Below the pieces are notes generated by a model, which worked only from the letters and a program-made list of their open reading frames with translations, did no database searches and was not told where the DNA came from. Both the position numbers and the translations under genes were made by a program. DNA of 64,000 nt from Lytechinus pictus (taxonomy: Eukaryota), in NCBI RefSeq assembly GCF_037042905.1, contig NC_087251.1, positions 42,968,001 to 43,032,000 on the forward strand, in the 5' to 3' direction. Positions 24,731 to 53,200 of this stretch are shown in pieces (position 1 is the stretch's first letter; every line of letters begins with the position of its first letter).

Positions 24731-25670
24731 AAATATAATATGATTCAAAATTTCAGATCTATGTTGTGCAACTAAAGGCCACCGCACTCCTTACGATTGG
24801 TCTGCGACCCGATTTTGGATTAAAATGTAATAAAATTTTGATATGAATATTGAGACATTGAACATCCTACTGACTCAGTAGGCCTACAAAACATGTATTA
24901 AATTATAGTTCTAAATCGTCATATGAATACTTTTGTTTAAATTTGTGACTATGCTACTGTAGGGCTGTTATTTTGACATTTGGATTCTGTTTATATTATA
25001 GTTCATTTATTTACAGTTCCAGCTTTGGAATTTAATTCAGCTTTGTTTACATTATTTTTTATGCTTCTGTTGTCATCCATTTCCATTTGACTTTCAACCT
25101 GGGGCCCATTTCTCGACACCAGGTCTCAGTAACACAAAGGTTTGCAATCAATCGCTAAAGACCAATGACCAATCAAGGTCATTGTTGCATGCGCACTGAG
25201 CCGCACTCTCTGACCGGGAACCAATCAGTGCACTTTTTTCATATTTGCAATTCATTGCAAACCTTTGTGTTACAGAGCCCTTGTAGTCACATATATGTTT
25301 ATCCACCAACCAAAGAGTTAGCTCCAATCTTACTTAACCCAATTAACCAACAGATTTCGATACTATTGGCAGAAAGAGCAGACGAAACATAGCCTTAGTC
25401 ACAAAAAAGCATAATTTTCAAAAAGCAAACTTTGATAAAACTGCAATTATTGTGATGAATTTGGGAATACATCTAATGATTCTGATTTGCAATGGGTAGA
25501 CTCTTCTCGCTACATTTTCTCTATCCATCTGTAATTCCTTTTCATCAGAAAATAATAATTTGAGGTTAAAGTTAACTCAAAACTTTTATGATATCCATCT
25601 ATTAAACTGAATGTACTTTCTTTACCCATCACAGATTGGAAAGCGTAGTGTCACCAAGATACCGTGAATC

Positions 25671-50232: not shown

Positions 50233-53200
50233 ATGCCTGAGTTTACAAACAACAACAACCTGATTCTTGGCGGTCTGGCAGCGTGTGCTGTGGGTGTGTT
50301 GGGCATCTCATATATCTACTTACGGAGAGAAAAACGCAAGTTCACTCAGGTTGGAGTGGTGTCTAAACTCTTTATCCATCCTATCAAGTCATGCAGAGGA
50401 TTGGAGGTTTCCCAGGCTGAGTGTGTTGCTCTTGGGATCAAAAGTAATGGAGTTTTGGATAGGTGAGATTGTGTGGATTTAGAAATATATATTTATATAT
50501 ATATTCAGCTGAGAGCAAACAACAGATTCTATTATTTTCTTTACCTTTACGTCAACGTCATGAGTGTCTGAGTGAATATTCACCACTAGACTCGCATGTA
50601 TTCTCATTTGCTATTGTAAAATGGTGATATGGATCCTAATCAAATGATTGGCTAAATTCTATCATGTGACCAGTCATGGTTTTAAGAAATGACAAGGATC
50701 CACATCTTTAATTTATTCTTTAAAAAAAATACCTATTAGAATAATTTCAGACACTTACTACCTTTGTTCCAAAGGTATTTTGTGTAGAGATTAATTTGAT
50801 GTCAATTTTGAATGAAATTCTGTGACATTTCTATGGTTCTCAATATAGGCAGAGATCCCGGAGGGGCCACTTCCATTGACGAGTGGATACCATGCGCGAC
50901 CATGGGGTCTCGAAAAACACGTATTTTCAATATTCTGAAAATGCACCCCTTAACAAGTACTGGCGTGTGAAACCCTACCCTTAACAAGTATTGGAAACAA
51001 AACGATACTCTTGGCAAGTATTCCCTGAATTGACCCCCTAAACAAGTACAGCGATATTTTTATTGTTATGTCACGGACGTCGGTCGTCGGTACCTACATC
51101 ATTGGGTTTATAGTACCACCTCCCACATCTTGTGCAAATCGTACTCTAAACACGTATAGTGTTGACTCTTGGGGCAAAAAGTACATCCTTTATAAAACAT
51201 TTTAGTCTTGATTTTTTTACACCCTCGCAAATTTGACCCTAAACATGTACCTATCCTAACGAAAATAGATACCCTTTTTCATTATTTTAGTGTTTTTAAC
51301 ACCCTTATTACATTGCGTACGTAACGTGCCCTATCTTGTAAAAGACATCCTTTTTACATGTTTTTTTGGTCACGCATGGTATCCACTCGTCAATGTAAGT
51401 GCCCCCCCCCCCCCCCCCCCCCCCCCCGGGCAGAGATCTATAAAGTAACAATACAGCAGTAGGCTAATAATCTGGATTTACTTTATTTGAATACAGGATG
51501 GATAATTATAAGTTCAGAAGGATAGTAAAAGGAAAGTTGGCCTGAAAACACGTCTTACATTGCCCAACCCTCTCAAAAAATAATATGTGGAAGAGATCAT
51601 ATGGTATTCCACTCTTGTTTTCTTGTGAAGTTTTAGAACAATAAATTGAATATTCACATTTCAACGGCTACTTCCTTTTTCTGTCACATTGGCAGTTCCC
51701 TTTACAGCTTTGCTTAACACAGTGCTATCTTGTAATTTTAGATATATCTCATTGGCCGGAATTCACAAAGGTGGTTTTTAAAATCCACGGATGAGTCCAT
51801 GGTTTATGCAGATTTCCTGTGTAAATTACGCTTACCGGTATATTAAAAAATGTCCAATGCTGATGCACGCTTTTGTCACAGTGCGTCAAATTGACGCCTG
51901 TTGCCGTGGTTTTCCACGCTATCATATTCATGAGTCCTCTGTTTTTATTCACGAGTCCACTGCTCAAACAGAGGACTCATGAATAAAATAGCGTATCTAA
52001 CCATGGTAACAGGCGTCAATTTGGCGCACTGTGACAAAAGCGCGCATCAGCATTGGACATGTGTTATACACGCGCCTGATACTCACTAAATTAAGCGTAA
52101 TTTATACAGGAAATCTGCATAAACCATGGACTCAACCGTGGGTTTTAAAAACCACCTTTGTGAATTCGGGCCGTTGGGTCTACAATTAAGTTTCTTATTG
52201 AACTTATTAAAAAGTCAGTATTCAATTATTTTATGTTTATACTATTTCTCTGCAACTTTTCATCATGTGTCAATTGTCAACTTTGTTTTAAATTTACAAT
52301 CTACAACCAATATCAGAATGAGCAGAGTGGGCAAAATTTGCCATTCCGTAGCCATTTCATGTCAAATGTCTATGGAAGTATCTGAAAATGGGCAAATTGT
52401 GAGCCATGTCCTGTTCTTATGTATAGAGGTATCTAAAAATTGACGAAAAAAAAATTGTTCTAGCCATTTTATGTTCTAATGTCTATGGTATCAAAAATTG
52501 ACAAAAATTAACTGATTTCTATCCGTTTTTCAAAAGTTCTATAATATAGAAAACGGCAAGTTGCATACTATGTGTTTTCTTTCCTGCTGACAGGGTATTC
52601 AAAAGCACACTCACTATCATAGCAATCACTGTTCTTTCACAGATCCTTCCTTGTCATTGATGCCAACAAAGACAGCGTTTCAAGGATCCGTCAACCTTCC
52701 TTGGCTTTAGTAGCGCCCTCTCTGTCTGATGACATGCAAAGTTTGTTGATCAATGCTCCTGGTATGCCCACTCTCACAGTGCCTCTTCACAGTGATCAGA
52801 ATGGAAGAATATACAACTCAAGGTACTCTTTCCACTTCTTGCTTCAGGAATGTTCACCATTATTCGAATAATGCGCATTTATGAATAGGTTGTGGTGATG
52901 CAGCACGTTTGAGGGTATTTACGCTATGCATCAAGCACAAGGCGCTTGCACATAATATTGTGAATACCCAAGATGACTGCATTGTTACTAATATAACAAG
53001 TTTTAATATTACAAGTTTTAAAATGTGCATTATTTGTTTTATAAAATGGGTGGTAGAATGAATTTGTAGTGGAAAGTTTGTTTGAATTGCTCCAAATTTT
53101 CTAGGATCACACATATGGATATGATATGATATCACAGGCATATATATGTATACTCTAGCTGACAAGAACACATTTTGAGTATCAGTATTTAAAAAATACA

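Follow-up and report, generated by a model that had tools for sequence, protein, structure and literature searches.

Two mARC genes in tandem

The window analyzed here, a 64,000-nucleotide (nt) stretch of the sea urchin Lytechinus pictus genome (assembly GCF_037042905.1, contig NC_087251.1, positions 42,968,001 to 43,032,000), contains two genes of the mARC family, gene A and gene B, whose first coding exons are nearly identical while the other exons have diverged. Enzymes of this family catalyze molybdenum cofactor-dependent N-reduction together with CYB5B and NB5R3. The two genes lie in tandem on the same strand, 24.6 kb apart, and neither is broken: each has seven coding exons flanked by canonical splice sites, and the phases match between the two. 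Their products, of 329 (A) and 331 (B) amino acids, are identical to the L. pictus RefSeq mARC records P0030 and P0033, respectively. Pfam found in both genes the domain order that defines the family, MOSC_N followed by MOSC. Seven of the 10 pieces scanned had a match: MOSC_N (PF03476) lies in exons 1 and 2 of both genes and, weakly, in exon 3 of B, and MOSC (PF03473) in exon 4 of both. The closest solved structure was that of human mARC1 (6fw2, 1.6e-60). Lytechinus possesses four mARC paralogs (A to D), of which C and D lie outside the window, and tblastn with the A to D proteins revealed no third mARC copy within it. Strongylocentrotus purpuratus has orthologs of A and B and a partial C-like model.

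All exons are on the plus strand. The first coding exon of gene A (25635..25897, 263 nt) follows an acceptor AG that ends at 25634, has its ATG at 25671, and is closed by a donor GT at 25898; it encodes a hydrophobic N terminus, a basic stretch, and the start of MOSC_N (Pfam 3e-08). Next come exon 2 (26543..26719, 177 nt), which continues MOSC_N, exon 3 (27414..27585, 172 nt), exon 4 (29197..29337, 141 nt), where the MOSC domain begins, exon 5 (31321..31385, 65 nt), exon 6 (33326..33400, 75 nt), and exon 7, whose coding part (35768..35900) runs to the stop codon of the 329-residue protein. Gene B has the same layout: a first coding exon (50198..50462, 265 nt, ATG at 50233), exons 2 (52643..52822, 180 nt), 3 (53775..53946, 172 nt), 4 (54557..54697, 141 nt), 5 (58512..58576, 65 nt), and 6 (59759..59833, 75 nt), and the coding part of exon 7 (60927..61059), which ends the 331-residue protein. 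An earlier note on this DNA, made from the letters alone, had recognized exon 1 correctly but set its start one base too late; it begins at 25635 in A and 50198 in B.

Read from the sequence, the exon 1 product has hydrophobic residues at positions 9 to 29, followed by the basic stretch. Its KSC and DR residues align with human Lys67-Ser68-Cys69 and Asp91-Arg92, and we assume that they take part in cofactor binding; the mARC reviews that we searched made no mention of Lys67/Arg92 or Lys67/Cys69. Cys262 of gene A, in exon 6, aligned with human Cys273, and gene B has a cysteine in the same column. A review of mARC gives Cys273 as the molybdenum ligand (PMC10637980).

Near identity limited to the first coding exon

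When the window was compared with itself, genes A and B shared a single long match (25614-25904 versus 50177-50469). Its core, 25699..25904 in A and 50264..50469 in B, comprises 206 nt with three mismatches (98.5% identical): G/A at 25769 (Lys33, synonymous), G/A at 25802 (Lys44, synonymous), and A/T at 25890 (Met/Leu74). The earlier note had put these figures at about 200 nt and three substitutions, two of them synonymous, and direct counting bore them out. Identity stops 7 nt inside intron 1. Over exon 1 as a whole, 5 of 76 residues differ and the synonymous divergence (dS) is 0.074, which is slightly high because the split Arg76 codon, with its third base in exon 2, was counted. In contrast, exons 2 to 7 are 62 to 73% identical at the DNA level, differ at 100 of 253 residues (∼40%), and have dS values of 0.90 to 2.04 per exon, or 1.38 when pooled. 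The divergence of the later exons and the abrupt end of similarity past the donor were thus as the earlier note described, and the dS comparison by exon that it had proposed gave 0.07 for exon 1 versus 1.38 for the remainder. Fourfold degenerate sites followed the same division (1/36 differing in exon 1 versus 42/73 in exons 2 to 7), the contrast at synonymous sites between codons 12 to 76 and exons 2 to 7 gave a Fisher P of 5e-14, and the longest run of identical letters was 87 nt in exon 1 versus 9 to 17 nt in the other exons.

Similarity fades gradually on the 5′ side. The 5′ part of exon 1, consisting of untranslated region (UTR) and codons 1 to 10, matches at 54 of 68 columns (79%), and a run of 27 identical nt spans the ATG. 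In the 30 nt preceding the acceptor, 18 positions match (60%) versus 8 to 10 of 30 for exons 2 to 7. At 30 nt, this flank scored highest among 91 acceptor pairs; at 45 nt, 1 of 90 pairs did as well, and at 60 nt, 5 of 90 did. Similarity therefore extends only modestly into the intron. With that reservation for its intronic part, the weaker similarity that had been noted in the upstream UTR and acceptor is real. The flanking DNA has not been exchanged: introns and upstream sequence have no colinear similarity past ∼30 nt, the six A/B intron pairs gave a single 27-nt BLAST match in total, and a comparison of the regions upstream of A and B for colinear homology yielded one shared repeat only. 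We saw no signal of GC-biased conversion, as the GC content at third codon positions (GC3) was 0.49 in exon 1 versus 0.42 to 0.48 in the other exons.

We then compared four public sequencing runs, of 23 listed, with positions 25400 to 26260; X21, chosen by its species label, was the sole RNA run used. Runs X1 and X3 each yielded an A-type 5′ contig, a B-type 5′ contig, and one common core contig. In X3, the core contig (191 nt, identical to A) had a depth of 71 versus 39 and 43 for the two 5′ contigs. At the diagnostic 5′ sites, 6 of 15 X21 reads were A-type and 9 of 15 were B-type, showing that both genes are transcribed. RNA reads and contigs began at 25634 and depth was zero over 25487-25631 in three runs; since reads and contigs start at the acceptor, a noncoding exon should lie upstream. 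Transcript-like contigs do run on into other upstream sequence (95/145 and 95/133 letters placed).

The reads also contained variants that are shared between the genes. In X21, 25777 T>A (Phe36Tyr) was present in 22 of 22 reads and 25779 A>G in 20 of 22, and neither occurs in the window copies. Both genes must carry 25777 T>A, because both are expressed and yet every read has it; if it were in one gene only, the chance of seeing zero reference reads would be ≤1e-5. Markers of paralog D were absent from the X21 reads (0/23), and a contig with a paralog D marker differed at 14 of 117 bases in the exon 1 stretch. Gly54 is found in one A model from L. pictus and also in B of Lytechinus variegatus. 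The Arg54Gly variant itself (window position 25830), which adjoins the conserved KSC motif, was seen in 16 of 23 X21 reads and in records of both A and B. An older annotation of L. pictus has Asp71/Leu73 in its A and B models alike, where the window has Asn71/Val73 in both genes; these older models are fragments and could hold polishing errors.

Several other features were recorded in the window. A ∼1-kb (TAG)n microsatellite of 329 copies (58744-59732) occupies part of gene B intron 5 and ends 26 nt before exon 6. A dispersed element with 163/192-bp internal repeats is present at 2095-3095 and at 29432-30390, the latter copy in intron 4 of gene A. Another dispersed element, which is short and has inverted arms (1850-2098, 3282-3634, 32670-33266, and 54926-55408), occurs in introns of both genes. 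A tandem array of 22 copies of a 110-bp unit (87% matches) covers 15739-18192. Judged by their motifs, the broken frames at 18920-21426 (minus strand) and 44125-45884 (plus strand) seem to resemble the reverse transcriptase of long interspersed nuclear elements. An open frame at 935-1240 (plus strand) likewise seems to resemble the C-terminal SARAH region of Salvador and is probably the last exon of an upstream gene.

Exon 1 in other urchins and in mammals

In L. variegatus, the exon 1 core has 4 differences between the A and B proteins over 66 residues, and the downstream part has 101 over 253. Between the two Lytechinus species, orthologs have 3/66 and 4/66 residues different in this core versus 6/253 and 7/254 downstream. 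By these comparisons, constraint on exon 1 does not exceed that on the remainder of the gene, since the Lytechinus orthologs differ there at least as much as they do downstream. The earlier note had expected exon 1 to cluster by species and the other exons by paralog. In a protein-level quartet of window A and B with S. purpuratus A and B, exon 1 had five sites that grouped by genus and none by paralog, whereas exons 2 to 7 had none by genus and 57 by paralog (Fisher P = 1.5e-7). The expected division was therefore found. Approximately unbiased (AU) tests agreed: for exon 1 they rejected both paralog clades (B, P = 0.04; A, P = 0.02), and for exons 2 to 7 they rejected the within-genus clades (P = 3e-12 and 3e-61). 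Fragment gene models were excluded from the urchin trees.

Two further observations concern other pairs. In S. purpuratus, records annotated as isoform X2/X3 (P0041, P0042, and P0011) appear to join a C-type front to exons 3 to 7 of A, and their exon 1 differs from that of A at 2 of 75 residues, which suggests that A and C have been recent exchange partners in this species. The acorn-worm copies P0016 and P0018 have no differences over 41 residues of the last-exon equivalent and differ by 19 to 49% elsewhere; conversion at the opposite end of the gene is possible in this pair.

We extended the comparison to mammalian mARC1 and mARC2, using protein sequences of 16 same-species pairs, 9 of which entered the trees. 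A first set kept 12 lineages of 17 pairs; ferret/mink, bear, rabbit/hare, rhino, and mole, whose models were partial, aberrant, or poorly matched, were left out of means and quartets. In 12 noncatarrhine pairs, 0 to 6 of 91 to 92 residues differ up to Arg92 versus 80 to 101 of 205 to 245 residues (∼40%) past it; with all 16 pairs, the downstream range is 80 to 104 of 205 to 245. The donkey paralogs are identical across the aligned exon 1 region. In the first set, orthologs differ by 17 to 19% in the exon 1 segment and paralogs by 4%. Across 66 nonindependent quartets, 787 exon 1 sites grouped by species and 5 by paralog, versus 70 and 2,852, respectively, downstream. A paralog clade was rejected for mammalian exon 1 (P = 2e-47), and support for grouping by species was strong. 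The homogenized segment ends at a homologous arginine in both groups, Arg92 in human and Arg76 in urchin, and breaks at Arg92 were also seen in exon-skipping bear and zebu models, in a model from ferret, and in fused models from marmoset and skink. In seven noncatarrhine pairs (dolphin, shrew, beaked whale, takin, sheep, fox, and lynx) whose members come from equally long contigs, the paralogs differ at one to six residues, and thus their exons are physically separate, whereas the gundi pair consists of gene models that share one exon.

Catarrhines depart from this pattern. Human, orangutan, siamang, and baboon (P0179/P0156 and other catarrhine pairs) have 12 to 20 differences in residues 1 to 92, of which just 1 to 3 fall in residues 51 to 92. 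The human and baboon proteins group by paralog at 9 sites versus 1. From these sequences, the anchor region seems to have ceased converting by the time of the catarrhine ancestor, if not before.

In a tree of exons 2 to 7, all urchin copies stood apart from all vertebrate copies, and a grouping of urchin B with a mammalian paralog was rejected (AU P = 6e-5). As judged by this tree, the urchin and mammalian mARC duplications are independent. In a macaque model (P0053), exons 2 to 7 of mARC1 are preceded by an exon 1 of mARC2 type, and a gundi model is built likewise. More generally, models that join the upstream gene to downstream exon 2 (P0053, P0090, P0043, P0044, and P0045) were present in macaque, gundi, marmoset, and skink and represent either real read-through or mistakes of annotation. 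Judging by the models from skink and Hemicordylus, lizards too have mARC copies in tandem.

Probable interlocus conversion, its rivals, and known systems

We favor the interpretation that interlocus gene conversion limited to exon 1 would account for these data, and we give this reading a probability of roughly 0.8. That gene conversion is the process at work we consider very likely. It is also likely that conversion has been repeated and is probably ongoing, because variants occur in both paralogs in different combinations. The earlier note had proposed an exon-limited and recent conversion; the dS values and trees agree with the first part of that proposal, and the evidence for repeated exchange speaks against a single recent event. 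It had also stated that conversion homogenized the membrane anchor and the cofactor-contact segment. We saw no evidence that the tract is directed at either of these as such.

In the mechanism that we propose, conversion would copy short tracts between the first exons of two old tandem genes. Exons 2 to 7 have likely become too dissimilar for recombination and the introns appear scrambled, which would leave exon 1 alone (263 to 265 nt, the others having 65 to 180 nt of coding sequence) above ∼200 bp of near identity. Each conversion event would then renew the identity that allows the next. The anchor and N-terminal strands may be interchangeable between the paralogs, with selection tolerating the exchange, and an equal exon layout would account for mammalian mARC1 and mARC2 behaving alike. 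PMC3924818 gives a minimal efficient processing segment (MEPS) of ∼200 bp for conversion, with a steep drop in efficiency near 80% identity; its data come from yeast and rodent experiments, and shorter homologies can still convert. Exon 1 of the mARC genes fits this description as the sole exon with a coding length of >200 nt and the sole exon with >80% identity, although the values were measured in yeast and rodents and not in sea urchins. We consider it an even bet that exon length is the reason why exon 1 converts.

A number of observations weigh against this interpretation as a whole or against its length step. The urchin exon 1 protein tree is weak: a single branch of 11 is starred, and support for the Lytechinus A plus B clade is 73/76. 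In S. purpuratus, 9 of 75 exon 1 residues distinguish A from B, and exchange there is therefore older or rarer. Clear homogenization of exon 1 was not observed in pairs from amphioxus (46/72 residues differing), acorn worm (19/77), starfish (18/79), or Diadema (copies 1/2, 29/77). The X21 reads are unphased to gene and come from one run. The mammalian evidence is at the protein level, with dS and exon lengths there being deduced, and the identical horse, zebra, and dog pairs (3/16) could be models sharing one exon. In catarrhines, homogenization has been lost in residues 1 to 50 (11 to 17 of 50 differ). Length in particular is challenged by this catarrhine escape, by the unhomogenized invertebrate pairs, and by short exons that look homogenized, namely, exon 6 of Lytechinus C/D (0/25 and 1/25 differences) and exon 4 of S. 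purpuratus A and partial C (2/47).

It is possible, if doubtful, that conversion acts but that selection sets its limits, tracts in exons 2 to 7 being purged because the substrates of the enzymes differ and exon 1 being kept alike to serve both bodies, for example through read-through splicing from A exon 1 to B exon 2. B exons 2 to 7 have indeed been paralog specific since before the Lytechinus-Strongylocentrotus split (57:0 sites), A, C, and D look more alike in short exons, the joined macaque P0053 and gundi models would be of the required kind, and human mARC paralogs differ in some substrates, according to PMC10637980. However, synonymous sites in exons 2 to 7 are near saturation (dS of 0.9 to 2.0), for which no selection is required once identity is ∼66%, the read-through models are annotations that may be errors, and catarrhines manage without homogenization. 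A further version, in which exon 1 is a selected interchangeable module in sea urchins and mammals alike, with an upstream promoter and exon 1 spliced onto downstream catalytic exons, strikes us as unlikely; it would cover the fit of each exon 1 to both enzyme bodies, the favoring of conversion, the origin of the arrangement on two occasions, and the partial escape of catarrhines. A promoter-type recombination hot spot at exon 1, due to open chromatin or a CpG island, is quite unlikely. First exons adjoin promoters in many genes and the mammalian segment begins at the ATG, but urchin exon 1 has an acceptor and contigs continue upstream, so it is not a promoter exon; its GC3 is ordinary, and the upstream regions share no colinear homology save the one repeat.

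The remaining explanations dispense with recurrent exchange. A single recent replacement or re-duplication of exon 1, the latter having been the alternative offered in the earlier note, would yield low dS in one block. We regard it as very improbable, since three urchin species have the pattern, with residues specific to each genus, since identity falls off in steps from core to 5′ part to acceptor flank, and since both paralogs contain recurring variants, differently combined. Strong purifying selection on exon 1 nucleotides (through RNA structure, an enhancer, or codon constraint) would also reduce dS with no exchange, and yet orthologs differ in exon 1 at least as much as elsewhere in urchins and in mammals (17 to 19% versus 16 to 19%), the contig with the paralog D marker has diverged in this very stretch, and selection alone does not produce a grouping of sites by species; we hold this explanation to be exceedingly improbable. 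Finally, near-identical repeats draw mismapped polishing reads, which may have affected the fragment models P0031, P0032, and P0034, and the earlier note had named an assembly or polishing artefact as grounds for rejecting its claim. That such an artefact copied one exon into both genes is scarcely credible, as the copies are distinct at three sites of the core and at many in the 5′ part, the same pattern is present in L. variegatus, and X1 and X3 gave separate 5′ contigs with a common core (in X3, a depth of 71 versus 39 + 43).

If interlocus conversion is the correct reading, its main point is that the same exon was homogenized to the same boundary in two independent duplications. This would provide a replicated natural test of whether homology length or selection decides where in a duplicated gene concerted evolution persists, a standing question, with catarrhines and the unhomogenized amphioxus, acorn-worm, and starfish pairs as contrasts. 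MTARC1/MTARC2 is a studied liver disease target. Guides, morpholinos, primers, antibodies, and short reads directed at exon 1 are unlikely to separate the urchin paralogs, given the 27 identical nt across the ATG, and the same limit is likely to apply to dog, horse, cat, and cattle. Trees of whole mARC proteins blend two histories, and unequal crossover between the first exons is predicted to generate promoter-swap deletion alleles.

Conversion limited to an exon has been described before, and taken alone the urchin tract is ordinary. Among the matches listed in our searches, we found no report of mARC gene conversion or of sea urchin mARC, most subscription papers being outside them; conversion in this family is unreported as far as we found, with the supplements of genome-wide scans, where MOSC1/MOSC2 may appear, lying outside the search. 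The accessible text of PMC10637980 describes an N-terminal anchor and two mammalian paralogs that are ∼66% identical, giving overall identity alone with no mention of its uneven distribution. MTARC1/MTARC2 resembles the urchin pair in family, in the MOSC_N and MOSC domains, in the molybdenum-binding cysteine, and in the homogenization of the first segment up to Arg92 (urchin Arg76), but it arose by a separate duplication and Lytechinus has four paralogs. A close parallel is SIGLEC11/SIGLEC16, for which PMC5701461 reports repeated partial gene conversion in primates, lineage by lineage. As in mARC, neighboring paralogs have one part of the gene converted repeatedly, and that part groups by species. 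In the SIGLEC pair, as described there, the converted exon encodes the ligand-binding domain of paired immune receptors, a selective reason has been proposed, and there was one duplication. In mARC, a metabolic enzyme, the converted exon is the first coding one, which bears the anchor, and the pattern recurs in duplications that arose independently in sea urchins and in placental mammals.

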